Source of the DNA: Deltaproteobacteria bacterium | GTDB taxonomy: Bacteria > Myxococcota_A > UBA9042 > PHBI01 > JACKFB01 | Direction of reading: 5' to 3' | Length of the DNA stretch: 64,000 bases | Assembly (NCBI GenBank): GCA_020632695.1 | Contig: JACKFB010000003.1 | Coordinates: forward strand, 321,061-385,060 | Part shown: positions 39,641 to 57,785 of the stretch, piece by piece | Layout: the number at the start of each line of letters is the position of its first letter | How positions within the stretch are numbered: the stretch's first letter is position 1 | Program-made: the position numbers and the translations under genes | Notes under the pieces: model-generated | The model's input: only the letters and a program-made list of their open reading frames with translations | What the model was told of the DNA's origin: nothing | The model's database searches: none

Positions 39641-39830
39641 CACGGCGCCCTCGCTCGCCGCTGACGGCGCCTCGGTCAGTGGCGGGGTTGGAGCGTTCGG
39701 CTCGGCCGGGGCCTTCGGCTCGGCCTCGGCTGCGGGGTCGGACTCGGTCTCGGCTTCGGTCTCGGTCTCGGTCTCGGTCTCCGCCTCGGTCCCGGTCTCG
39801 GCCTCGGTCCCGCGGGAGTTCCTGAGCCCC
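39641..39830. repeat. about 190-bp GC-rich repeat element, copy A (ends in (gcctcggtctcg)n)
   Basis: First about 90 bp are near-identical to 40443..40530, then it degenerates into 9-12-bp GC-rich tandem units. Confidence 0.65.
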
Positions 39831-39915
39831 GCACTCTGAACGCACCCAGCGCTTGGAGCCGCGCATCACGTTCCGTACACTCCGCTTGCCAACGCTTGGC
39901 CGTGGGTACTGGACG

Positions 39916-40152
39916 ATGACGACCGCTGCGCAAATCAAGAGTGACTTCACCAAGTTGCCGGTTGGCGAACAGATCGAGCTGCTCTGCGAACTCTGGAACG
40001 ACCTGGCCCGGGAGCCCGGTGCCGTCGCGCTGAGCGATGATCAGAAGCGCGCGTTGGAACGCCGCTACGAACGCCATCTCCAGCATCCGGAGGAGGCCAT
40101 TCCTTGGGAGGAGGTCCGGGACAGCATCCGGAGCAGACGCAGGGAGTCGTGA
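39916..40152 (+). CDS. addiction-module antitoxin (TIGR02574-like putative addiction module component)
   Basis: 78 aa from Met 22 of ORF 39853..40152. LPVGEQIELLCELWNDL motif. Its TGA overlaps the GTG of the downstream toxin. Confidence 0.65.
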   Translation: MTTAAQIKSDFTKLPVGEQIELLCELWNDLAREPGAVALSDDQKRALERRYERHLQHPEEAIPWEEVRDSIRSRRRES

Positions 40153-40442
40153 TCCGCTTCCGACCTGAAGCGCGGTCCGATGCACAGTCGGCGTATGATT
40201 GGTATGAGGACAAGGAGAGCGGGCTCGGTGATCGATTGGTGGACGCCATCGATGCCCTGATGGACCGCGTCGACGCGAACCCCCGCCTCTTTCCAAAGGC
40301 CCATCAAGAGTTTCGGCGCGCAGTACTCTCCCAATTCCTATACTGCGTGTACTTCGTCGTTGAGCCGGCCTGCGTCCTCGTCGTCGGCGTTCTCCACGGT
40401 CGCCAGGACCTGCGTCGACTGTTGGAGCGCCTTCGTCGGTGA
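40149..40442 (+). CDS. type II toxin, ParE/RelE superfamily
   Basis: 97 aa. VIRFRPEARSDAQSAYDWYE...FPKAHQEFRRAVLSQFLYCVYFVVE is ParE-like. GTG start overlapping the antitoxin stop. Confidence 0.7.
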   Translation: MIRFRPEARSDAQSAYDWYEDKESGLGDRLVDAIDALMDRVDANPRLFPKAHQEFRRAVLSQFLYCVYFVVEPACVLVVGVLHGRQDLRRLLERLRR

Positions 40443-40680
40443 GTGCGCCCTCGCTCGCCGCTGCCGGCGCCTCGGACGGGGCGGGTTGGGAGTGTTCGGC
40501 TCGGCCGGGGCCTTCGGCCTGGCCTCGATTGCGGCCCCGGAGGCGGTCTCGGCCCCGGTCTCGGAGGCGGTCTCGGCCTCGGAGGCGGTCTCGGCCTCGG
40601 AGGCGGTCCCGGCCTGGGAGGCGGTCTCGGCTTCGCCTCGGCCCCGGCTCCGGCCTCGGGCCTCGGACGCCCTCTCGGTC
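40443..40680. repeat. about 190-bp GC-rich repeat element, copy B
   Basis: Homologous to copy A, beginning right after the toxin stop. Confidence 0.65.
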
Positions 40681-40749
40681 CCGGCGTCCGTGCTCGCGCC
40701 GAGGGCCTTCCGCTTGACCTTTGCGGTCGGCCTGCCAGATCCTCTGCTC

Positions 40750-41055
40750 ATGAACAGCACTTACGACACTGCCCGACGGCTCGCTCGCTTGCACCGGGTC
40801 GAGGATCCCGACACCCGGCAGGTCTACTTCTTCGACGCCCCCAACGAGGTACGCCTCCTCGAGATCTCCGACGCCGTCGGGTACACGGGAGAGGTCCTGC
40901 CCTTCCGATTCGGCGCGAGGCCCGACGTGGGCATCGACTACCCGTCCGTCGTCATCCTGTTGACTCCACAGGAACTTGATGAGCTGCGCGACGGCACGCT
41001 CTCGCTGCCTGATGCCTGGGGGGACCTCGACGCCTCGCGCTTGCTGGACGAATAG
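40750..41055 (+). CDS. hypothetical 101-aa protein (first gene of uncharacterized two-gene module)
   Basis: Start at Met 131 of ORF 40360..41055. No motif recognised. A 4-nt gap to the next gene suggests an operon. Confidence 0.5.
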   Translation: MNSTYDTARRLARLHRVEDPDTRQVYFFDAPNEVRLLEISDAVGYTGEVLPFRFGARPDVGIDYPSVVILLTPQELDELRDGTLSLPDAWGDLDASRLLDE

Positions 41056-41058
41056 GGG

Positions 41059-41550
41059 ATGCCACGTCACCGCGATTGGGCGGACGCGTACCTGGCTCAG
41101 GCGCGAGCAGACCTCGAAGGCGCGAGGAACCTCACTGGCGCAGTGCCTTCCGTCTTCGCCATGCTCCTGCAGATGGCCTTCGAGAAGATGGCCAAAGCGG
41201 CGCTTCTTCGGTCCGAGGCGGTCCCGCTCGATTGGGTGAGAACCTCCCACAGGGCTGCCTCCCGGATGACGCAGATGATGCGTCGACAGCGTGGCCTGCT
41301 CGGACCGCTTGGCGGGCCCTGGCGTTGGGAGGGGATCCTGCAGGTCATCAACGCTCTCGAGGGAGCCCATCCGCAGGTGGCTCGCGCGGGACCTCATCTC
41401 GAGTACCCGTGGGAGGGTCTCGATGGCCGCATCCTCTGGCCCGAAGAGCACCTCCAGATAGCCGGCAAGCTCGGCCAGTCCAGACAAGCGGCAGATGTCC
41501 TGAAGTTCGCCACGTTGGTCGAGCGGAACTTCGACGAGATCTTCCCCTGA
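41059..41550 (+). CDS. HEPN-like helical protein (tentative)
   Basis: 163 aa. N-terminal helix pattern [10 protein letters not shown]...[19 protein letters not shown] resembles HEPN. The R-x(n)-H motif is not canonical. Confidence 0.45.
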
Positions 41551-41575
41551 GATTCGCGGGAGCGGGACCGCCGTC

Positions 41576-41700
41576 GCTGATGACGCCGTTGAAGCCGGGC
41601 TGCTCGTCGCGGACACGCTCGACCTCGCGCAGGTTCGACGCCTCCGAGCGGTTCTGGATGATGTGTCCCTCGTGCACCCGGGCGCCGACCATCGCGTCCA
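41576..41700 (-). pseudogene. 120-bp internal fragment of a ygiQ-like radical SAM gene
   Basis: About 90% identical to 51221..51340 inside the intact ygiQ, in the same orientation. The translated fragment reads [34 protein letters not shown]. Confidence 0.6.
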
Positions 41701-41818
41701 AGAATGGGCCCGGCGGGCGTTGTGCGGCCGCCCGGGGCCCGCTAATATCGCCCGACCGTGACACCCCTTGCCCACCCTCCCGGCGTCAACAACGCATGAG
41801 GACCATTCGAGGAGATTC

Positions 41819-42649
41819 ATGATGACGACCACTGTCGAGAGCTTCGTAGCCCTGTTCGTCACCCCCACGCGCCGCCGCATCTTCGCGTGCACCGAGTGCG
41901 CGAAGGCGGCCGAGGCGCGCGGCCTCAACGACCTGGCAGAGCGCGCGATGGCCGCGGTGCGGGCCGATGAGGCCGTCCTGGAGCTGGAGCGGGCCCGCCG
42001 CGCGCCGCCACGTGCGGCCCAGCACGCGGAGACCGCGCCGGAGCGGGACGCCCGCATCGACCACGCCCTGACCGCCATCGACCAGACGCTGGCCCACATC
42101 GCGCGCGTCTTCGGTGAGGAGAGCGAGCGCGGCCAGAGGGCCACCGCGCTGCGAGGGAAGATCTTCCCCCTGGGGGTCACCGGCGTCACCGCGCTGCCCT
42201 ATGTCGAGCAGTACGGCGAGGTGAAGAGCCTCCTCGCCAAGCTCCAGGGCGAGTGGGCCGCCGATGTCGATGCCACCATGATCGCGCCCTTCATCGCGCA
42301 GCTCGCCGAGCTGAACCCGGGCTACGGCGCCATCCTGAACCCCGCCCCGGACGCCCGCCCCACCGCCGACGAGGTCCGCGCCGAGAACGCCAAGGGCCAA
42401 CGCCGCCTGCTGGCGCTGGTCGCGACCATCCTCGGCCGCTTCCCCGACGACACCGACACCGACATCGCCGCCCGCGACGCCCTCCTCGGCCCGATCGCCC
42501 GCCAGAACGACGCCCTGCGCGAGCTGCGGCGCGCTCGCGGCGGCGGCGGCGACCCCGCCACCCTTGACCTGCCCGATCCCGACGCGGCGCCGGTCGCCGA
42601 CTCCATGACGGCGAGCGCCGACGCGACGAGCGAGGCCCCTGCCCTCTGA
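41819..42649 (+). CDS. hypothetical 276-aa helical protein
   Basis: ATG preceded by GAGGAG. High GC. No motif recognised. Acidic low-complexity C-terminus. Confidence 0.55.
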   Translation: MMTTTVESFVALFVTPTRRRIFACTECAKAAEARGLNDLAERAMAAVRADEAVLELERARRAPPRAAQHAETAPERDARIDHALTAIDQTLAHIARVFGEESERGQRATALRGKIFPLGVTGVTALPYVEQYGEVKSLLAKLQGEWAADVDATMIAPFIAQLAELNPGYGAILNPAPDARPTADEVRAENAKGQRRLLALVATILGRFPDDTDTDIAARDALLGPIARQNDALRELRRARGGGGDPATLDLPDPDAAPVADSMTASADATSEAPAL

Positions 42650-43167
42650 CGCGCCCCTCCCCGGACCGGTCGAGCACGCCCTGCACGCCCCAGGATTCGC
42701 TCGACCGGACCGGACCACCGCCGCCCGGATCTAACGCAGGCCCCCGCAACCGATGACGACCGCCCTCCGCAACGCCATCCAGGCCAGGCGACGACCACCC
42801 CACCGCCCCGCCTGGTTCCTCCGACCCCCGACGACGACCAGCCCACCGCCCGGGCCAGCCCCTCCGAGGCCCCCGCTGGACCAGTCAACTCCCCCGCCGA
42901 GCGTCTCTGAGGCGCCCCGAGCAGCAGTCGACTGCGCCGCCCAGGGCCTCCGAGACACTCACGAGACCACCGACCCGTCGCGAGCCCCCGCGGATGCAGC
43001 GCCGCCTGAGCTGCGCGATGCATCCCCACTGTGGGATTCCTGCACCAATGGCCGGACGGGCCACGCTCTTCGAGCTATGCTGACGCCGCGCGCGCCGTCC
43101 GGCACGTCCGCACACCGGGACTCCTGCGGGCGGCATCCCCTCGCGACCGCTTCCTCAGAGGACATCG

Positions 43168-46100
43168 ATGACTTCCGAACGCCACCTGGAAGAGTCGTTC
43201 ATCGCCAAGCTCGTCAGCCTCAAGTACGAGTATTGTGAAGACATCGATGATCGGGACAGCCTCGAAACCAACTTCCGCCAGAAGTTCCAAGCGCTCAACC
43301 AGGTCAAGCTGACCGACGGCGAGTTCAAGCGACTCCTCGACGAGATCGTCACGCCGGACGTCTATGAAGCCGCGCGCGCCCTGCGAAATCGGGAGGCGTT
43401 CATCCGCGATGACGGCACCCCGCTCAACTACACGCTTGTCAACATCAAGGACTGGTGCAAGAACAGCTTCCAGGTCATCAACCAGCCGAGCATCAACACG
43501 GACAACAGCCGTCACCGCTACGATGTCCTGCTCCTGATCAATGGCGTCCCTGTGGTCCAGGTCGAGCTCAAGACGCTCGGAATCAGCCCCCGGCGAGCGA
43601 TGGAGCAGATCGTCGCGTACAAGAACGACCCCGGGAACGGCTACTCGAAGACGCTGCTCTGCTTCATCCAGCTCTTCATCGTCAGCAACCGCACGGACAC
43701 TTGGTACTTCGCGAACAACAACGCGCGGCATTTCGCCTTCGACGCCGACGAGCGCTTCCTTCCCATCTACCAGTTCGCCACCGACGACAACACGAAGGTC
43801 ACCCACCTCGATGACTTCGCCGAGGCCTTCCTGGCCAAGTGCACGCTCGGGCACATGATCAGCAAGTACATGGTTCTCATCGCCAGCGAGCAGAAGCTGA
43901 TGATGATGCGGCCGTATCAGATCTACGCCGTGAAGGCCATCGTCGACTCCATCGACCAGGACTGCGGCAACGGTTACATCTGGCATACGACCGGCTCCGG
44001 CAAGACGCTGACCTCCTTCAAGGCCTCGACGCTCCTCAAGACCAACGAGCGCATCCACAAGTGTCTCTTCGTCGTGGACCGCAAGGACCTCGACCGCCAG
44101 ACCCGCGAGGAGTTCAACCGCTTCCAAGAGGGTTGCGTCGAAGAAAACACCAACACCGCGACGCTCGTCGACCGCCTTCTGTCCGATGACTACGCCGACA
44201 AGGTCATCGTCACCACCATCCAGAAGCTCGGCCTGGCCCTCGACCAGAACAGCAAGCAGAGCAAGCAGCACGTCGCTCGGGGCCGGAACACCTACAAGCA
44301 GCGGCTGGAGTCCCTGCGCGACAAGCGCATGGTGTTCATCTTCGACGAGTGCCACCGCTCCCAGTTCGGCGAGAACCACAAGGCCATCAAGGAGTTCTTC
44401 CCCAACTCCCAGCTCTTCGGCTTCACCGGCACGCCGATCTTCAAGGACAACGCCACCGTGAAGCAGGTGGAAGGCGACAAGGCCACGCTGCGTACCACGC
44501 AGGACCTGTTCCAGAAGCAGCTCCACGCCTACACGATCACCCACGCCATCGAGGACCGCAACGTCCTCCGCTTCCACGTCGACTACTACAAGCCCAAGGA
44601 CGCCGCGGTCCCCCCGCCGGGCGAGACGTTGACGAAGAAGGCCGTCGCCCAGGCCATCCTCGACAAGCACGATGCGGCGACAGGAGCCCGGCGCTTCAAC
44701 GCGCTGCTCGCCACCGCTTCCATCAACGACGCCATCGAGTACCACGGCGTCTTCAAGAAGCTGCAAGCCGAGCGCCTGGCGGCAGACCCCGGCTTCGTGC
44801 CCCTGAAGATCGCAGCGGTGTTCTCCCCCCCGGCGGCGGGCAACAGGGACGTCCAGCAGCTCCAAGAGGACCTGCCCCAAGAGAAGGAGGACAACCGCCA
44901 GGATCCCGAGGGAAAGAAGGCCGCGCTCGAGGCCATCATCACCGACTACAACCAGCGGTACGGCACCAACCACGACATCAACAATTTCGACCTCTACTAC
45001 CAGGACGTCCAGCAGCGCATCAAGTACCAGCAGTTCCCCAACCGCGACCTGCCCCAGAAGGGCGCCGAGAAGATCGACATCACCATCGTGGTCGACATGC
45101 TGCTCACCGGCTTCGACGCCCGGTTCCTGAACACGCTCTACGTGGACAAGAATCTCAAGCACCACGGCCTGATCCAGGCCTTCTCGCGCACCAACCGTGT
45201 CCTCAACGCGACGAAGCCCTACGGCCACATCCTCGACTTCCGCCAGCAGCAGAAGAGCGTCGACGCCGCGATCACGCTCTTCTCCGGCGCACAGGCCGAC
45301 CGGGCCCGCGAGATCTGGCTGGTCGACAAGGCCCCCGTCGTCATCGAGAATCTCGAACAGGCCGTCGCCGACCTCGGCGCGTTCATGAAGTCCCAAGGCC
45401 TCGAAGCCAGACCAGAACAGGTGAACAACCTGAAGGGCGACGCCGCCCGAGCGCAGTTCATCAAGCGATTTCGGGAGGTCCAGCGCCTCCAGACGCAGCT
45501 CGACCAGTACACCGACCTCACCGAGGAGCAGCGGGAGCAGATCGAGCAGGCCCTTCCCAAAGACGATCTCCGTGCCTTCCGCGGCGTCTACCTCGAGACG
45601 GCCAAGCGCCTGAGGGAGCAGCAAGCCGTCGCGGGCACTGGCGAAGCGCCGGTCGACCCCGAGCTCGACCAGCTCGACTTCGAGTTCATCCTCTTCGCCT
45701 CCGCGGACATCGACTACGACTACATCATGAAGCTGATCGCGAAGTACTCGGGCCTGGACCCGGAGCGAAGCGAGAAGACCCGCCAGCAGCTCATCGGCAT
45801 GATCCAGTCCGACGCCAAGTTCCTGGACGAGCGCGAGTCGATCACCGAGTACGTCCGCTCGCTTCCGGTGGGCGAGGCGCTCGACGAGTCCGCCGTCCAC
45901 TCCGGGTACGAGAAGTTCAAGGCCGCGCGGCAGGCCAAGGAGCTCGAACGCCTCGCCGAGGCCCATGGCCTGACGAAGGAGTCCCTCTCGGCCTTCGTCG
46001 ACACCATCCTCCAGCGCATGGTGTTCGACGGCGAGCTGCTCACCGACCTGATGGCGCCCCTCGATCTGGGCTGGCGCGAACGCCGCGAGCGAGAGCTCGC

Positions 46101-46194
46101 CCTTATGACGCAGCTCGTCCCGCTCCTGAACAAGAGGGCCCACGGCCGGGAGATCTCAGGCCTGAATGCGTACGAGCATGGGGGAGGCCGGTGA
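43168..46194 (+). CDS. hsdR: type I restriction enzyme R subunit
   Basis: 1008 aa. DEAD/DEAH helicase motifs (TGSGKT, DECHRSQ), an N-terminal restriction domain and the C-terminal HsdR helical domain. GC markedly lower than flanking DNA. Confidence 0.95.
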   Translation: MTSERHLEESFIAKLVSLKYEYCEDIDDRDSLETNFRQKFQALNQVKLTDGEFKRLLDEIVTPDVYEAARALRNREAFIRDDGTPLNYTLVNIKDWCKNSFQVINQPSINTDNSRHRYDVLLLINGVPVVQVELKTLGISPRRAMEQIVAYKNDPGNGYSKTLLCFIQLFIVSNRTDTWYFANNNARHFAFDADERFLPIYQFATDDNTKVTHLDDFAEAFLAKCTLGHMISKYMVLIASEQKLMMMRPYQIYAVKAIVDSIDQDCGNGYIWHTTGSGKTLTSFKASTLLKTNERIHKCLFVVDRKDLDRQTREEFNRFQEGCVEENTNTATLVDRLLSDDYADKVIVTTIQKLGLALDQNSKQSKQHVARGRNTYKQRLESLRDKRMVFIFDECHRSQFGENHKAIKEFFPNSQLFGFTGTPIFKDNATVKQVEGDKATLRTTQDLFQKQLHAYTITHAIEDRNVLRFHVDYYKPKDAAVPPPGETLTKKAVAQAILDKHDAATGARRFNALLATASINDAIEYHGVFKKLQAERLAADPGFVPLKIAAVFSPPAAGNRDVQQLQEDLPQEKEDNRQDPEGKKAALEAIITDYNQRYGTNHDINNFDLYYQDVQQRIKYQQFPNRDLPQKGAEKIDITIVVDMLLTGFDARFLNTLYVDKNLKHHGLIQAFSRTNRVLNATKPYGHILDFRQQQKSVDAAITLFSGAQADRAREIWLVDKAPVVIENLEQAVADLGAFMKSQGLEARPEQVNNLKGDAARAQFIKRFREVQRLQTQLDQYTDLTEEQREQIEQALPKDDLRAFRGVYLETAKRLREQQAVAGTGEAPVDPELDQLDFEFILFASADIDYDYIMKLIAKYSGLDPERSEKTRQQLIGMIQSDAKFLDERESITEYVRSLPVGEALDESAVHSGYEKFKAARQAKELERLAEAHGLTKESLSAFVDTILQRMVFDGELLTDLMAPLDLGWRERRERELALMTQLVPLLNKRAHGREISGLNAYEHGGGR

Positions 46195-47453
46195 TGGCCG
46201 GATCGCCCCCTTCAACCGTACCAAAGCTTCGGTTCCCAGAGTTCCGGGAAGCGCCCGGGTGGGCACGCGATCAAATCGGCAATGTTGCAAGTATTACCAA
46301 AGGAAGGGGTGTCTCAAAGTCGGATGTGACGGAGGCGGGTGCAACTCCCTGCATCAGGTATGCAGAACTGTATACTTGCTATGGCGAGGTGATTCGTCAC
46401 GTGGTATCTCGCACGAACATCTCGCCCGATGAGTTGGTATTCAGCGAACCCGAGGATGTGATTGTGCCCGCGTCAGGAGAGACGCGAGCAGACATCGCGA
46501 GGGCTGCCTGCGTTGTCGACGGAGGCGTCGCACTAGGCAGTGATCTGAATGTCCTGCGGTCGCAGCTTAGCGGTCGGTTTTTCAGCTACGTGCTGAACAG
46601 TCCGCTTCGCCATACGATCGCACTACTCGCACAGGGCGATACGGTTGCTCACCTGTATCCCGCTCAGCTATCGCGTGTTTCGCTGGCTTACCCATCGCGG
46701 CGAGAGCAGCAGAAGATCGCCGACTGCCTCGGCTCGCTGGACGACCTGATTGCCGCCGAGGGCCGGAAGCTGGACACTCTGCGGCAGCACAAGCAAGGGC
46801 TGATGCAGGATCTCTTTCCTCGCATCGATGAGAGCCAGCCCAGAATGCGATTCCCTGAATATGCTCGTGCTCCTGCGTGGAAACCACGGAAGATCTCAGA
46901 TCTTCTCAAGAAGGCGTCCATCCAGGTCATCGTGGAGCCGGATACCAAGTATCAAGAAATCGGCGTGAGATCCCACGGAAATGGCGTGTTTCACAAGACG
47001 CCTGCGCTCGGGTCTCGTCTCGGTGCGAAGCGCGTCTTCGAGGTTGTCGAACAAGCCCTGGTCTTCAATACCGTCTTCGCCTGGGAACGCGCAGTCGCCA
47101 CGACTTCACGCGCGGAAGCAGGCATGATCGCTTCGCACCGATTCCCCATGTATCTCCCTAAGTTCGGGACGTGTGATGTTCGCTTCATGAAGTACGCATT
47201 CCTTACTCAGCGCGGTGCGCAGCTCCTGCACGTGGCATCCCCCGGGGGCGCGGGGCGGAACCGCACCCTCGGTCAAGCAGAACTCGGGGCGCTCGTGATG
47301 ACCGTGCCCAGTCTGGACGAGCAAGTCGCGATTGCGAGTATGATAGACGCAGCCTCGAATCTCATCGAGCTCCAAGCCGCCAATTGGGAACTGATAAAGC
47401 AGTATAAGGCCGGTCTTCTGCAACAGCTCTTCCCATCGCCCGGAGGCCACTGA
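46194..47453 (+). CDS. hsdS: type I restriction-modification specificity subunit
   Basis: 419 aa. Two target-recognition domains separated by conserved coiled regions. ATG overlaps the hsdR stop (TGATG). Confidence 0.85.
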   Translation: MAGSPPSTVPKLRFPEFREAPGWARDQIGNVASITKGRGVSKSDVTEAGATPCIRYAELYTCYGEVIRHVVSRTNISPDELVFSEPEDVIVPASGETRADIARAACVVDGGVALGSDLNVLRSQLSGRFFSYVLNSPLRHTIALLAQGDTVAHLYPAQLSRVSLAYPSRREQQKIADCLGSLDDLIAAEGRKLDTLRQHKQGLMQDLFPRIDESQPRMRFPEYARAPAWKPRKISDLLKKASIQVIVEPDTKYQEIGVRSHGNGVFHKTPALGSRLGAKRVFEVVEQALVFNTVFAWERAVATTSRAEAGMIASHRFPMYLPKFGTCDVRFMKYAFLTQRGAQLLHVASPGGAGRNRTLGQAELGALVMTVPSLDEQVAIASMIDAASNLIELQAANWELIKQYKAGLLQQLFPSPGGH

Positions 47454-47456
47454 ACG

Positions 47457-48635
47457 ATGCGGGACGCGCCAAAGATCCATCTGTACAGAAGCCTGACCAC
47501 GCTCGCAACCAGGCTGCGCAGTGATCTTAGAGACTTCCACAGCGTGCTCCTCTATGCCTATAATAGAACCGGGAAGACACGCCTTTCGATGGAGTTCAAG
47601 AAGCTAGGGAAGCGGAAAGGCAATGGCACCGCTGACACACTATACTTCAATGCATATACCGAGGACCTCTTCATCTGGGAGAATGACCTCGATTCCGACT
47701 GCGACCGCCATCTCCAACTCAATTCCAAGTCGGCGTTTCTGAAGTTACTCGCCGAGTTGGCCCTTGACCTGAGTATTGCTGAATATTTGTCGCGCTACGC
47801 CGATTTCGAATTTGACATCGACTACACCAGTTGGAAGGTGACGTTTCGGAAGGGCGATGAAGAACAGATCAAGATATCTCGAGGCGAGCAGAACATCTTC
47901 ATCTGGTGCATCTTCATGGCGATATGCGAGCAGGTTATCGCGGGACACTTGTCTTATCAATGGGTCAAGTATCTCTACATCGATGATCCCATTTCGTCGC
48001 TGGACGACAACAACGCTATCGCAGTTGCATGCGACCTCGCGGGCTTGCTTCGGAAGGCGGCCGCGAGGCGTGATATGGCGGGTAGTCCTGACCCGCTGCG
48101 AACGGTGATTTCCTCGCATCACGCGCTGTTTTTCAACGTGATGTGTAACGAGTTGAGCAGGAGACCCGAAGGACAGAACAAGGTAGATCACAAGCGATAC
48201 TTCTTGCAGCAGCCCACCGGCGAACGTGTCTACACGCTTCGCGCGACGGACGACACACCCTACTTCCACCACATCGCCACGCTTGCCGAATTGGACCGTT
48301 GCGCGAAGCGGACACGCTCTATACGTACCACTTCAATGCGCTGCGAAGTGTGCTGGAGAAGACGGCCAGCTTCTTCGGCCAGGAACTTCTCCGCCTGCAT
48401 TTTGCTTGCATAGATGAAGACGGGGGTTGAAGGATGAGGCTCTGTCTGCAATCTCGCACTGAACCTGCTGAGTCACGGCAGCTACGCCATCATGAGCCCA
48501 GTCGAGATGGTAGAGGACAACAAGAAGCTGTTTCGGCAAATCCTGGACGATTTCTTGAGCAAGTTTGAGTTCTTGCTTCCAGAGATCCTTCCATTGCCCA
48601 AGGCGAAGCGCCGATGCGAAATGACTGAACACTGA
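47457..48635 (+). pseudogene. ABC-type (AAA_15/AAA_21-like) ATPase gene, interrupted
   Basis: Walker A AYNRTGKT, ABC signature ISRGEQ, Walker B/D-loop LYIDDPISSLD, H-loop SSHH. After about 48.28 kb the plausible reading continues in the +1 frame and returns to the original frame at about 48.44 kb (ending ...KAKRRCEMTEH*). Confidence 0.5.
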
Positions 48636-50234
48636 CCAGCAGAAGCTCGGCAAGACGCTCTGGGCCATCGCCGATCAGCTCCGCGGGGCGATGAACGCGG
48701 ACGACTTTCGCGACTACATGCTCGCGTTCCTGTTCCTCCGCTACCTGTCGGACAACTACGAGCAGGCCGCGAAGAAGGAACTCGGGCGTGACTACCCGGA
48801 TCCAAAGGCGATCGGCAACGGCGGGCGGTCCGCTCTGTCCGTGTGGTACGGACAGAACCGGACGATGTGACGGCATTCGAGAAGCAGATGCGCCTCAAGG
48901 CGCACTATGTGATCCTCCCCAAGTACCTGTGGGCCAGCGTTTCCCACATGGCCCGCACTCAGGACGAGCAGCTTCTGAACACCCTCCAGGCCGGCTTCAA
49001 GTACATCGAGAACGAGTCGTTCGAGAGCACCTTCTCGGGCCTGTTCTCGGAGATCAACCTCGGCTCGGACAAGCTCGGCAAGAACTACTCCGCCCGCAAT
49101 ACGAAGCTCTGCACGATCATCGGCGAGATCGCGAAGGGGCTCGCCGATTTCTCCACCGACAGCGACACGCTGGGAGACGCCTACGAGTACCTGATCGGCC
49201 AGTTCGCCGCAGGCTCGGGCAAGAAGGCGGGCGAGTTCTACACGCCGCAGCGGATCTCGGACATCCTCTCCGGCATCGTCACGCTCGACAGCCAGGAGCC
49301 GGGGGCAGGGACGCGCGAGCGGCTCGGCAGCGTGATGGACTTCGCCTGCGGGTCGGGCTCGTTGCTGCTGAACGTCCGAAAGCGCATGGGGGCGCACGGC
49401 ATCGGGAGGATCTTCGGGCAGGAGAAGAACATCACGACCTACAATCTGGCGCGGATGAACATGCTGCTACATGGGGTGAAGGACTCAGAGTTCGAGATCT
49501 ACCATGGCGACACGCTGACCAACGACTGGGACATGCTCCGCGAGACCAACCCGGCGAAGAAGCCGTACTTCGACGCCGTGGTCGCCAATCCGCCGTTCAG
49601 CTACCGCTGGGACCCGAGTGACGCCTCGGCCGAGGATGTGCGCTTCAAGAACTACGGGCTGGCGCCGAAGTCTGCCGCGGACTTCGCGTTCTTGCTCCAC
49701 GGCTTCCACTACCTCAAAGACGACGGCGTGATGGCCATCATCCTGCCGCATGGGGTGCTGTTCCGCGGCGGTGCTGAGGCGAAGATACGCGCGAAGCTGC
49801 TCGAAGATGGCAACATCGACACCATCATCGGGCTGCCCGCGAACCTGTTCTACTCGACGGGGATCCCGGTCTGCATCCTGGTGCTCAAGAAGTGCAAGAA
49901 GCCCGATGACGTGTTGTTCATCAACGCCGTCGAGCATTTCGACAAGGGCAAGCGGCAGAACGTCCTCAGCGACGAGCACATCGCGAAGATCGTCAGAACC
50001 TACAAGCATCGCAAGGAGGAGACGCGGTACTCGCGGCGGGTGGAGATGGCCGAGATCCAGGCGAACGAGTACAACCTGAACATCTCGCGCTATGTGAGCA
50101 CGGCCAAGCCGGAGGTCGAGATCGACTTGGCGGCGACGCAAGAGGAGCTGGTGCGGATCGAGGACGAGATCCGCAAGGCGAAGGATCTGCACAACGGCTT
50201 CCTCGAGCAGCTCGGTCTGAAACCTCTGCCCTGA
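48621..50234 (+). pseudogene. hsdM: type I R-M N6-adenine DNA methyltransferase subunit, frameshifted
   Basis: ATG 48621 gives MTEH then a stop. The HsdM N-domain (DQQKLGKTLWAIADQLRG...FLFLRYLSD) is read in the +1 frame 48625..48870. The catalytic body with the ANPPF motif is in the original frame from 48843. Confidence 0.75.
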
Positions 50235-50300
50235 GGTGCGTTCGGGCCGCCTCTGGAAAGGGTGAGTCTCCCGAGCCGGAGGCCGTCGATCCCGATGTCG

Positions 50301-50346: not shown

Positions 50347-52563
<2,217 letters not shown>

Positions 52564-52586: not shown

Positions 52587-55500
52587 TCAGCCGAGTCGAT
52601 GAAGGCGGCGCCCCGCCGCCAGCTCGTGTCGCTCGCGTCGCCGCGTCCAGGCCCAGCCGAGGAGCAGCGCGGCGAGCCACGCGCCGCCGTCGCCCGTGGT
52701 GCCGGTGCAGCCTCCGCCTCCGCTGCCTCCGTCGCCTCCGCCGCCCGCGCGGTCGGTCTCCGGCTCGGCGCCGACGTCGTCCGGCGACGCGTCGCCGCTG
52801 GCGTCGGGGGGCGCGCCCGCGTCTTCCCGGTCCGCCACGTCGTCGAGCCCCGCGTCGTCCGGCGGCAGTGCCACGCAGAGGCCGGCCTCCGATCGTGTGC
52901 CGGCGGGGCAGCAACCGTCCACGTCAGCGCAGGCGCCGGGCTCGCACTCGGTCCGCTGCAGCTCCTCGCCGCAGCCGCTGGTCTCCACCCACACGTCGCC
53001 GGCGCAGGCTGCGGTCGACGGCAGCTCGCCGCAGTTGCAGGTCCCCGAGTCGGGCAGGCAGCGCCGTGCGCCGACAGCCCCGGACTTGCAGGAGTAGCCG
53101 CTCGGGCAGGCGTCGGCCAGGCCGCAGGGGACCACGCAGAACGCGCCCGTCGGCATCTGGAGGCAGGTGCCGACGAGGCACTCGGTCGTGTCGCACGGAG
53201 CGCAGGCGACTGGCTCGCAGACGCCGTCCGCGCAGGCGGAGCCGAGCTCGCAGGTCAGGGGCGTGCCTGCGCACTCTCCGGCGGAGCAGGTGTCGCCTTG
53301 GGTGCACGGGTCGCCGTCGTCGCAGCTCGCGGTGTTGTCCTGGTGGACGCAGCCGGAGACCGGGTCGCAGGCGTCGGTGGTGCAGGGGTCGCCGTCGTCG
53401 CAGGCGACCGACGTGTGGGTGCAGCCGGAGGCGGGGTCGCAGGCGTCGGCGGTGCAGGCGTCGCCGTCGTCGCAGGCGATGGCGGCGTGGGTGCAGCCGG
53501 AGGCGGGGTCGCAGGCGTCGGTGGTGCAGGCGTCGGCGTCGTCGCAGGCGATGGCGGTGTGGGTGCAGCCGGAGGCGGGGTCGCAGGCGTCGAAGGTGCA
53601 GGCGTCGGCGTCGCTGCAGGGGACCGGGGCGTGGGTGCAGCCGGTCGCCGGGGCGCAGGCGTCGGTGGTGCAGGGGTTGGCGTCGTCACAAGCGACGCTG
53701 GTGTGGGTACACCCGGACGCCGGGGTGCAGGCATCCGAGGTGCAGGCGTTGGTGTCGTCGCAGTCGCGCGCCGCGTGCGTGCAGCCGAGCTTCGGGTCGC
53801 AGGCGTCGGTGGTGCAGGGGTCCGAGTCGTCGCAGGTGACGGCCGAGTGCCCGCAGCCGGTCTTGGGGTCGCAGGTGTCCTGGGTGCAGGCGTCGCCGTC
53901 GTTGCAGGTGGTGGCGGAGTGCACGCAGCCCGAGGCCGGGTCGCAGGCGTCGGTCGTGCATACGTTCGCGTCGTCGCAGTTCACGGGCGCGCTCACGCAG
54001 CCGCTCTTCGGCTTGCAGGTGTTCGCGGTGCAGGCGTCGGCGTCGTCGCAGTCGACGGCGGCGTGCGCGCAGCCGGAGGCCGGGTCGCAGGTGTCCGCGG
54101 TGCAGGCGTTGGCGTCGTCGCAGCTCAGGGGCACGGACACGCACCCGGCGACGGGGTCGCAGGTGTCTGCGGTGCAGGCGTTCCCGTCATCGCAGCCGAT
54201 GGCCGTGTGGACGCACCCGGTCGCGTGGTCGCAGGTGTCGACGGTGCACACGTTGGCGTCGTCGCAGTCGAGGGACGGGTGGGCGCAGCCGGTGGCGGGG
54301 TCGCAGGTGTCTGCGGTGCAGGCGTCCGCGTCGTCGCAGTCCACCAGATCGGTGACGCATCCCGCCGCGGGGTCACAGGTCTCGGTGGTGCAGACGTCCA
54401 GATCCTCGCAGGACACGAGCTGGTGGGTGCAGCCCTCATCCGCGTCGCAGGCGTCGGTGGTGCAGGCGTCACCGTCGTCGCAGTCCACGGGGTCGTGGGT
54501 GCAGCCGGTGGCGGGGTCGCAGCCGTCGGCGGTGCAGGCGTCGCCGTCGTCGCACGGGTTGGGCGTGAAGAGGCAGGCGCCCGAGCTGTCGCAGCCATCA
54601 TCGGTGCACGGGTCACCGTCATCGCAGGCCTGGGCCACGTGGGTGCAGCCCGTCGCCGGGTCGCAGGCGTCGACGGTGCACGCGAGCGCGTCGTCGCAGT
54701 CGACCGCCGTGGTGGCGCAGCCGGTGAGCGGGTCGCAGATGTCGGTGGTGCAAGCGTTCGCGTCGTCGCAGTCGACCAGGTCGGTGACACAGCCCAGCGC
54801 CGGGTCGCAGGTGTCGGTGGTGCAGGCGTCGTCGTCGTCGCAGTCGACGCTGGCGTGCCCGCACCCGGTGGCGGAGTCGCAGGAGTCGACGGTGCAGGCG
54901 TTCGCGTCGTCACAGTCGACGGCGGCGTGCCCGCAGCCGGCGAGCGGGTCGCAGGTGTCGGTGGTGCAGGCGTCGCCGTCGTCGCAGCCGACGCTGGCGT
55001 GGCCACAGCCGGTGGCGGGGTCACAGGTGTCGTTGGTGCAGGCGTCCGCGTCGTCGCAGTCGACGCTGGTGTGCTCGCAGCCGGCGAGCGGGTCGCAGGT
55101 GTCGTTGGTGCAGGCGTCGTCGTCGTCGCAGCCGACGCTGGCGTGGCCACAGCCGGTGGCGGAGTCGCAAGTGTCGTTGGTGCAGGCGTCCGCGTCGTCG
55201 CAGTCGATGGCGGCGTGCCCGCAGCCGGTGGCGGAGTCGCAAGTGTCGTTGGTGCAGGCGTCCGCGTCGTCGCAGTCGACGGCGGCGTGCTCGCAGCCGG
55301 CGGCGGAGTCGCAAGTGTCGTCGGTGCAGGCGTCCGCGTCGTCGCAGTCGACCAGGTCGGTGACGCACCCTGCCGCCGGGTTGCAAGTCTCGTTGGTGCA
55401 GGCGTCCGCGTCGTCGCAGTCGATGGCGGCGTGCTCGCAGCCGGTGGCGGAGTTGCAGGAGTCGGCGGTGCAGGCGTCCGCGTCGTCGCAGTCGACGTTC

Positions 55501-57785
55501 GCGTGCTCGCAGCCGGTCACCGGGTCGCAGGTGTCGACGGTGCAGGCATCGCCGTCGTCGCAGGAGTGGGGCGCGAAGGTGCAGTCGCCCGAGCTGTCGC
55601 AGCCGTCGTCGGTGCACGGGTTGCCATCGTCGCACTGCTGCGCCACATGGGTGCAGCCAGTCCCCGGGTCGCACGCGTCGACCGTGCACGGGAGCGCATC
55701 GTCGCAGTCGATCCCGGCGTGCGCGCAGCCGGTGCCGGGCTCGCAGGTGTCTGCGGTGCAGGCGTCGGCGTCGTCGCAGTCGACCGCGGCGTTGGCGCAG
55801 CCTGTGGCGGGGTCGCAGGTGTCCGCGGTGCAGGCGTCGGCGTCGTCGCAGTCGACGGCGGTGTTCACGCAGCCCGACGCCGGGTTGCAGCTGTCGGTGG
55901 TGCAGGCGTCGGCGTCGTCGCAGTCGGTCCCCGCGTGGGCGCAGCCGGTGGTCGAGTCGCAGGTGTCTGCGGTGCATGCGTCCGCGTCGTCACAGTCGAT
56001 GGTGGCGTTGACGCATCCCGACGCCGGATCGCAGCTGTCGGTCGTGCATGCGTCGGCGTCGTCGCAGTCGACGGTGCGGCGTGGCCGCAGCCGGTGGTCG
56101 AGTCGCAGGTGTCGTTGGTGCAGGCGTCCGCGTCGTCGCAGGTCGCAGGTGTCGTTGGTGCAGGCGTCGGCGTCGTCGCAGTCGACGGCGGCGTGGGCGC
56201 AGCCGGTGGTCGAGTCGCAGGTGTCGTTGGTGCAGGCGTCCGCGTCGTCGCAGTCGACGGCGGCGTTGACGCATCCCGACGCCGGATCGCAGCTGTCGGT
56301 CGTGCATGCGTCGGCGTCGTCGCAGTCGACGGTGGCGTGGCCGCAGCCGGTGGTCGAGTCGCAGGTGTCCGCGGTACAGGCGTCCGCGTCGTCGCACTCG
56401 ACGGCATCGTTCACGCATCCCGAAGCGGAGTCGCAGCTGTCGGAGGTGCAGGCGTCGGCGTCATCACAGTCGACCGCGGTGTGGCCGCATCCGGTGGTCG
56501 AGTCGCAGCTATCGGTGGTGCAGGCGTCAGCGTCGTCGCAGTCGACGGCATCGTTGACGCATCCCGAAGCCGGGTCGCAGCTGTCGGAGGTGCAGGCGTC
56601 GACGTCATCACAGTCGACGGCGGCGTGGCCGCATCCGGTCGTCGGGTCGCAGCTATCGGTGGTGCAGGCGTCGGCGTCGTCGCAGTCGACGGCGGCGTGC
56701 TCGCAGCCGGTGGTCGGGTCGCAGCTATCGGTGGTGCAAGCGTCCGCGTCGTCGCAGTCGACGGCGGCGTGCTCGCAGCCGGTCACCGGGTCGCAGGTGT
56801 CGACGGTGCAAGCATCGCCGTCGTCGCAGGAGTGAGGCTCGAAAGCGCAATCGCCCGAGCTGTCGCAGCCGTCGTCGGTACACGGGTTGCCGTCGTCGCA
56901 CTGCTGAGCCACATGGGTGCAGCCCGTCCCCGGATCGCACGCGTCGACCGTGCACGGGAGCGCATCGTCGCAGTCGATCCCGGCGTGCGCGCACCCGGTG
57001 ACGGGATCGCAGGTGTCTGCGGTGCAAGCGTCCGAGTCGTCGCAGTCGACCGCGGCGTTGGCGCAGCCTGTGGCGGGGTCGCAGGTGTCCGCGGTGCAGG
57101 CGTCGGCGTCGTCACAGTCGACGGCGGCGTTCACGCATCCCGACGCCGGGTTGCAACTGTCGGTGGTGCAGGCGTCGGCGTCGTCGCAGCTCACCGCGGC
57201 GTTGGCGCAGCCCGTGGTGGGGTCGCAGGTGTCTGCGGTGCAGGCGTCGGCGTCGTCACAGTCGAGGGCGGCGTGCTCGCATCCCGAGGCAGAGTCGCAG
57301 CCATCGGTGGTGCAGGCGTCGGCGTCGTCGCAGTCGACCGCGGCGTGCCCGCAGCCGGTTGTCGGGTCGCAGGTGTCGGTGGTGCAGGCGTTGGCGTCGC
57401 CGCAGTCGATCGCGGCGTTGGCGCAGCCGGTAGTGGAGTCGCAGGTGTCTGCGGTGCAGGCATCGGCGTCGTCGCAATCGACGCGCGCGTGGGCGCAGCC
57501 GGTGTGGGGTCGCAGGTGTCTGTGGTGCAGGCGTCGGCGTCGTCGCAGTCGACTGCCGTGTTGACGCACCCCGAGGCGGGGTCGCAGCTGTCGGTGGTGC
57601 AGGCGTCTGCGTCGTCGCAGCTCACCGCCTCGTTGGCGCAGCCTGTGGTGGGGTCGCAGGTGTCTGCGGTGCAGGCGTCGGCGTCGTCGCAGTCGACTGC
57701 CGTGTTGACGCATCCCGATGCCGCGTTGCAGCTGTCGGTGGTGCATGCGTCGGCGTCGTCGCAATCGACGCTCGCGTGGGCGCAC
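52587..57785 (-). CDS. C-terminal portion of giant secreted protein: tandem 24-aa Cys-rich repeats plus MYXO-CTERM-like sorting signal
   Basis: In-frame [19 protein letters not shown] units throughout. Ends with a Cys/Gly-rich stretch, a hydrophobic helix and an Arg cluster ([33 protein letters not shown]). Joined to the upstream portion by a frameshift near 57.49 kb. Confidence 0.75.

Follow-up and report, generated by a model that had tools for sequence, protein, structure and literature searches.

The accepted mechanism of HEPN/MNT (minimal nucleotidyltransferase) toxin-antitoxin (TA) systems rests on an RNase site with the motif Rx4-6H (RX4HXY in HepT) and an adenylyltransferase site with the motif GSX10DXD (in MntA), and these two motifs define the characterised systems (PMC3710099, PMC7641770). 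Some HEPN families rely on alternative residues (PMC3710099), and HEPN domains joined to nucleotidyltransferases (NTases) typically lose Rx4-6H and have a substrate-binding role (PMC3710099, sections 6 and 14). Pairs of Class II (PF05168/MNT) have no active RX4H and keep a conserved tyrosine (Yao et al., PMC7641770). Here we describe a pair of genes, P1 and P2, on contig JACKFB010000003.1 of a Myxococcota metagenome-assembled genome, in whose family the architecture, tight coupling and mobility of these systems are kept with neither motif, while other residues are invariant in at least five phyla. The whole stretch of DNA analysed, referred to below as the window, is 64,000 nt long, and positions are numbered within it. 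An initial annotation, made from the sequence alone, had grouped P1 (gene 1) and P2 (gene 2) with a third gene, P3, as a candidate defence or TA-like module.

P1 (40750-41055, plus strand) encodes 101 amino acids (aa) and P2 (41059-41550, plus strand) 163 aa. The stop codon of P1, TAG at 41053-41055, is followed by a spacer of 3 nt (GGG at 41056-41058 by direct reading of the sequence) and then by the ATG of P2 at 41059, so that the two genes are probably translationally coupled. One genome per species was scanned, which gave 70 loci encoding a P2 relative. By tblastn and profile searches, a P1 homologue was found immediately upstream and on the same strand at 67 of these, and two of the three loci without P1 are contig ends. 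Across the homologous loci, most gaps between the two genes measure -1 to 14 nt; in one subgroup the gap is ~160 nt, and P2 there has an N-terminal extension of ~55 residues. At all three loci that were found independently, starting from P1 homologues, an intact P2 lies downstream; in two cases it had been missed or truncated by gene callers. The distance matrices of P1 and P2 correlate strongly (Mantel r=0.81, with none of 999 permutations as high), and the flanking open reading frames (ORFs) fall into 323 clusters for 346 ORFs, with no conserved third gene. P1 and P2 are a single operon-like, conserved and co-evolving two-gene module that is self-contained, in line with the initial proposal that they form one operon, and they travel together through otherwise unrelated neighbourhoods. 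The module has the generic traits of a TA pair: the genes are small, co-oriented and tightly coupled, occur in variable contexts, are present in multiple copies, and show a patchy phyletic spread. No promoter-like site was found for it by consensus scanning.

GC content outside the islands of the window is 72-78%, and because long ORFs arise by chance at such values, each of the three genes was checked by homology. P2 has 117 homologues of ~165 aa, and P1 has 16 in a word-indexed search. For P3 the same type of search returned 2 matches, as against 687 cluster representatives at E<=1e-3 in an exhaustive HMMER search. All three ORFs are real, conserved genes and not chance products of a high-GC genome, and their strand, lengths and coordinates are those initially annotated. 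Two minus-strand ORFs, at 40338-40760 and 41348-41764, were rejected as genes, having no family matches; the latter is accounted for by a gene fragment described below. P2 is frequently truncated or missed by automated callers. In the public annotation of the source genome (locus tags H6746_05160 and H6746_05165) it is called at a mere 91 aa, at one homologous locus (L076, 3221-3796) it is uncalled, and at another (L080, 3285-3797) it is given as 99 aa, while in all three the full P2 ORF is intact with every invariant residue present.

Pfam, PADLOC, NCBIfam and PHROGs contain nothing that P1 or P2 matches significantly, the sole Pfam trace for P2 being a sub-threshold match to DUF7620 (E 0.24; 12.4 bits against a threshold of 27). 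No defence-protein model of PADLOC-DB 2.0 is matched by P1, P2 or P3 at E<=1, and profile searches of the PDB gave spurious matches only. The earlier statement that no established family is recognised in the three proteins stands for P1 and P2; P3 turns out to be a sub-threshold relative of DUF6261 (see below). Invisible to Pfam, NCBIfam and PADLOC, and often miscalled, the P1-P2 family is at present missed in surveys of TA and defence genes in Myxococcota.

The relationship of the pair to HEPN/MNT proteins became apparent from predicted structures. AlphaFold2 models based on the family alignments (pLDDT 94.9 for P1 and 93.2 for P2) give P1 an NTase alpha/beta fold, a feature of the Pol-beta-type MNT superfamily, and P2 a four-helix up-and-down HEPN fold. 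A structure search with the models paired P1 with the N-terminal and P2 with the C-terminal domain of the same NTase+HEPN fusion proteins, namely 3c18, kanamycin nucleotidyltransferase (KNTase), ANT(4') and LinB; the pair therefore has an MNT+HEPN architecture. Foldseek concurs, more modestly (3c18, prob 0.98, TMq 0.57). The models confirm the description of P2 in the initial annotation as HEPN-like, and they supply the MNT-like partner fold that it had suggested looking for.

At the level of sequence profiles, the N-terminal half of P2 aligns by hhalign with the classical PF05168 HEPN proteins TT1696, TM0613 and ST0689, whose sequences were taken from the PDB (prob 69-72%, E 4e-5). The gathering threshold of PF05168 is 22 bits; one relative of P2 (P0099) passes it with 25.6 bits over its N-terminal half, two others remain below it (P0109 with 17.9 and P0093 with 16.5 bits), and P2 of the window has no PF05168 match at E<=1. 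P2 is a divergent relative of the PF05168 group (HEPN-T, or Class II), the closest group found for it. The P1 family profile showed no similarity to five MNT sequences from the PDB (hhalign, prob 0.2%) and had no Pfam match either. A canonical HEPN of the RYP type, sought in the fetched loci as an internal comparator, was found at none of them.

The pair is present in Myxococcota (Sorangium, Polyangiaceae, Byssovorax, Enhygromyxa), Armatimonadota/Chthonomonadales, Holophagaceae (Acidobacteriota), Planctomycetota, Victivallales and Desulfonema, thus spanning at least five phyla, and several genomes contain two copies. Those of Sorangium sp. So ce388 lie 9 Mb apart (L046 and L047), and the segment common to both sites, 96% identical, is only 1.3 kb long and consists of the module and ~450 bp upstream of it. 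The module in L046 is the first cassette next to an integron integrase (L046 6105-7175; TIGR02249, 402 bits), and the common segment ends within the GTT of a 62-nt imperfect palindrome, GCCGAAC...GTTCGGC (L046 8487-8550). This palindrome folds far better than shuffled sequences (z -4.0 and -5.8), suggesting an attC-like site in So ce388. P1-P2 as an integron cassette in general was considered and rejected, since only L046/L047 are convincing; in the window, the DNA downstream of P2 forms no attC-like hairpin (z +1 to +1.7), and the whole 64 kb is free of IntI homologues. Sorangium cellulosum So ce26 has a second, degenerate P1-P2 copy (L041 6438-6996) in tandem, ~1 kb upstream of the intact one.

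Signs of mobility are also seen in the window itself. The GC content of P1 and P2 is 65%, and values for P1, P2 and the neighbouring ParDE genes range over 62-65%, compared with 72-74% for core genes; the composition of P1-P2 is foreign to its surroundings. Another Myxococcota genome (L001) shows synteny with the window on both sides of the 2.2-kb segment 39503-41707, which contains P1-P2 together with ParDE, its flanking repeats and the gene fragment. In place of that segment L001 has 3.2 kb of different genes, and homology resumes at 41708. L001 also carries an integron integrase (L001 10488-11483, 473 bits), located after a Uma2 gene and 1.6 kb past its orthologue of P3. The P1-P2 module moves as a unit, and it behaves as a mobile cassette of the TA type, in support of the toxin-like pair architecture noted initially.

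On balance, we consider it moderately probable that P1-P2 is a self-contained, horizontally mobile module derived from the MNT-HEPN TA family, with P2 as an effector that is neutralised through binding by P1 and not by AMPylation. P2 would be the toxin, and P1, translated just upstream of it, would interact with it physically. Neutralisation would occur by stoichiometric binding, as in type II systems, rather than by AMPylation as in type VII, because P1 has none of the catalytic residues of GSX10DXD. In P1 the only near-invariant polar residues in an alignment of 65 sequences are H15, D/E19 and E38, and in its model strand 1 is not followed by the helix that would normally bear G[GS]. In P2, by comparison, the residues Q14, Q38, E42, K43, K46, H64, E115, Y116, P117 and W118 are invariant, the last four within the stretch L114-E-Y-P-W118. 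E42 and K46 form an Ex3K motif, of the Ex3[KR] type found in the HEPN superfamily, that is invariant in 53 of 53 sequences and aligns to E39/K43 of TT1696. Some members of the invariant polar cluster Q38, E42, K43, K46, H64, E115, Y116 and E119 align to canonical HEPN motif positions, and the cluster may represent a modified active or ligand site. Since P2 has this cluster and no Rx4-6H, its activity, which might be non-canonical RNase cleavage, binding of RNA or nucleotides, or other chemistry, would be expected to differ from that of HepT.

A greedy full-length profile alignment places the P2 residues L-E115-Y-P-W-E on T-R-Y-P-D-A-H (Rx4H), and R90 and H95 of TT1696 on E115 and G120, at low confidence. 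The position of the motif arginine thus appears to be occupied by an invariant glutamate and the motif histidine to be lost, and of RX4HXY P2 retains the tyrosine (Y116) alone. A bolder proposal, which we put forward tentatively and regard as rather doubtful, is that P1-P2 constitutes an unrecognised TA or defence family that records an evolutionary change-over within the HEPN/MNT lineage, and in which a catalytically dead NTase partner acts as a binding-only antitoxin. The HEPN active site would have been rebuilt, with Glu for Arg and with His, Tyr, Glu and Lys, possibly for a metal-dependent or non-RNase toxicity, and the family would have spread through soil and freshwater bacteria as an integron-type cassette.

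Several observations weigh against the pair being a toxin and its antitoxin. No G[GS], DxD or GSX10DXD is found in the 65-sequence alignment of P1, and no conserved Arg occurs 4-6 residues ahead of a conserved His in alignments of 26 and 53 P2 sequences, so that the Rx4-6H motif, which the initial annotation had singled out for a search, is missing from P2 as GSX10DXD is from P1. With both canonical catalytic motifs missing, the module could be non-toxic. The substitution of E115 for the motif arginine, moreover, comes from a low-confidence part of the greedy alignment. P1 consists of a single NTase-like domain, with no recognisable DNA-binding domain that could serve autoregulation. A tblastn search with P2, the one protein of the pair searched there, found no match on 72,556 plasmids or 50,697 phage records, and attC-like hairpins are not enriched downstream of P2 (1/68 against 1.6%, and 6/68 against a background of 4-5%). 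At ~8 loci P2 is frameshifted or truncated next to an intact P1, and the reverse is seen at ~1 locus; this asymmetry is suggestive of P2 being the harmful or costly partner, but it is not significant (~p=0.09, binomial estimate), and assembly errors could account for frameshifts in metagenome-assembled genomes. Finally, the association of the pair with defence genes across genomes is weak, and many of its neighbours are housekeeping genes.

In the main competing explanation, P1-P2 would be a two-subunit complex that is domesticated and not toxic, a split version of the NTase+HEPN-like proteins of the KNTase, ANT(4'), LinB and 3c18 type, with P2 as the substrate- or nucleotide-binding subunit and a role in binding or modifying small molecules or proteins, for example in antibiotic resistance or regulation. 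In its favour, P1 and P2 each find their best structural match in one of the two domains of the same fused proteins, many loci lie amid metabolic or biosynthetic genes, and the invariant E42 and K46 of P2 are four residues apart on one helix. This pair of residues is reminiscent of the catalytic Glu/Lys on the helical domain of KNTase. Loss of Rx4-6H is, furthermore, typical of substrate-binding HEPN domains attached to NTases (PMC3710099). However, NTase chemistry requires G[GS] and three metal-binding carboxylates, and P1 is without the former and has one of the latter at most; the contexts of the pair are unrelated and include no fixed metabolic partner gene, and multiple copies, cassette-like duplication and integron capture are better suited to a selfish or conflict module. 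We therefore regard domestication as unlikely. The two outcomes would have different consequences. If P2 is toxic, the HEPN scaffold supports another chemistry and an MNT protein can neutralise without catalysis; if it is non-toxic, the pair would show a conflict module in the course of being domesticated.

A second alternative follows from the location of the pair in the window. Upstream of P1, and separate from it, is a ParDE-type TA module (39853-40442, plus strand), identified by Pfam as an Unstab_antitox and ParE pair (PF09720, E 8.6e-12; PF05016, E 7.6e-8), as initially annotated. The likeliest start of ParE is the GTG at 40149, which overlaps the antitoxin stop (GTGA, 40149-40152) and gives a toxin of 97 aa instead of the 112-aa ORF starting with TTG. 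ParDE is bracketed by direct repeats of ~180 nt (39645-39822 and 40445-40624) that are 78% identical, the first 31-mer being identical bar one position. Each holds tandem repeats of 6/12/18 nt of the TCGGCC type, and there is no further copy in the 64 kb. The second copy begins 2 nt past the ParE stop and makes up the region upstream of P1. These repeats were rejected as attC sites of a chromosomal integron, as they fold no better than shuffled sequences (z -0.7 to +0.9) and have no AAC/GTT cores.

Between P2 and P3 there is, as the initial annotation had recognised, a ygiQ fragment. It is ~110 nt of a ygiQ-type radical-SAM gene (41565-41675, minus strand), identical at 103 of 114 nt (90%) to the resident ygiQ at 51218-51331. 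Located at the edge of the segment missing from L001, it looks like a scar of recombination, rearrangement or transfer. The idea that the restriction-modification (R-M) island had split ygiQ was discarded, since the full ygiQ ORF is intact (50347-~52560). Downstream of P3 are hsdR, hsdS and hsdM of a type I R-M system, with a gene for a PrrC-like anticodon nuclease (47457-48413; PADLOC PrrC, E 1e-98) embedded after hsdS and before hsdM, an arrangement known from the classical prr locus. This cassette was described at first as decaying, which does not hold for hsdR, in which all domains are present. The PrrC-like ORF, by contrast, covers profile positions 18-266 of 372 and the hsdM ORF has no HsdM_N match, so that the 3' end of prrC and the 5' end of hsdM may be damaged. 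The PrrC-like ORF is followed by ~430 nt that contain no plus-strand ORF of at least 60 aa, a 63-aa ORF (48226-48417) overlapping only the first bases. The GC content of the R-M/PrrC cassette (43000-50300) is 50-66% (54-59% for hsdS and prrC), compared with 72-78% around it, which suggests that it was acquired horizontally. Further downstream, a very long minus-strand ORF (52587-57785) encodes 1732 aa with dozens of Cys/Asp-rich repeats (CDDxDACTxDxCDPxxGC).

Given this setting, P1-P2 might be primarily an anti-phage abortive-infection (Abi) system of a defence island, with P2 released or activated on infection and the module cooperating with ParDE and the type I R-M/PrrC genes. The position of the pair between ParDE and an R-M cassette with an embedded PrrC-like gene speaks for such a system, as does the frequent use of HEPN proteins as Abi effectors (PMC3710099). 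At four other loci (L034-L036 and L060), too, genes of type I R-M are found within 8 kb of the pair, and methyltransferase and specificity subunits recur more often than any other neighbour family. A scan of 272 neighbours with Pfam and PADLOC nevertheless revealed a heterogeneous collection that includes EF-Ts, GAPDH, tRNA synthetases and kinases, and in which type I R-M is the sole recurrent defence function. R-M neighbours occur at only ~4-5 of ~65 loci, of which three (L034-L036) belong to closely related Sorangium strains; homologues of ParE and its antitoxin co-occur with the pair at just two other loci; and the remaining neighbours are mostly unrelated to one another, many with housekeeping functions. 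Considering also the absence of any PADLOC match, an Abi role in a defence island is decidedly unlikely, and the link to defence islands drawn in the initial annotation was overstated.

P3 (41819-42649, plus strand) encodes 276 aa and is preceded by the GAGGAG ribosome-binding sequence noted initially, at 41809-41814, 4 nt upstream of its ATG. In the window P3 matches DUF6261 (PF19775) with 20.1 bits (E 6.5e-4), below the gathering threshold of 27 bits, and 24 of 31 P3 relatives match the same family at E<=0.01 (best 3e-9). On the basis of these matches, P3 can be placed in a large family of helical proteins of ~270 aa related to DUF6261. Adjacency of the three genes on the same strand is what speaks for a single three-component system. 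Against it, no P3 homologue occurs at any of the 70 P1-P2 loci, and P2 and P3 are separated by a gap of 268 nt that contains the ygiQ fragment. The context of P3 outside the window was followed at two loci. The sole close relative of P3 is a 91% identical orthologue at the syntenic site in L001, where P1-P2 is lacking, and the relative in L075 stands alone among housekeeping genes. P3 has, in addition, the composition of a core gene (GC 74%, GC at third codon positions 0.94), unlike P1 and P2. A three-component system is therefore highly improbable, and the three-gene grouping initially proposed has to be given up: P3 is an unrelated native neighbour, independent of the P1-P2 module.

Among HEPN families that depart from the canonical motif, P2 resembles Parep1/8, in which H is kept and R lost, and AF0298/AbiV, with an alternative upstream His, in that H64 is N-terminal of the motif position, other charged residues are invariant and the arginine is lost (PMC3710099, section 6). 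The sequence family and the partner of P2 are different from theirs. To our knowledge, a charge-reversing invariant Glu at a position aligning to the motif Arg has not been described for either group. The fused proteins KNTase/ANT(4'), LinB and Exiguobacterium 3c18 resemble the pair in that their N- and C-terminal domains are matched by P1 and P2, and in having a HEPN-like domain without Rx4-6H (PMC3710099). By contrast, P1 and P2 are separate genes, P1 is without the catalytic carboxylates and G[GS] of the resistance enzymes, and there is no similarity at the sequence level.

The systems most akin to the pair include the Class II HEPN/MNT pairs (PF05168 with PF01909, NTP_transf_2; TT1696, TM0613, ST0689, AF0298), with which P2 shares the conserved tyrosine, here Y116. 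P2 differs from them in scoring below the PF05168 threshold, in being ~40 residues longer with extra helices, and in having the invariant E115 where, at low confidence, the Arg of RYPxxH aligns, the His position not being conserved. P1 lacks the GSX10DXD that Class II antitoxins keep, and has no profile similarity to MNT proteins. Compared with the type VII system HepT/MntA, both RX4HXY of HepT and GSX10DXD of MntA are absent from P2 and P1, so that neutralisation by poly-AMPylation is not expected, whereas gene order and size, the two predicted folds, the tight coupling of the genes and their mobile, multi-copy distribution are alike in the two systems.

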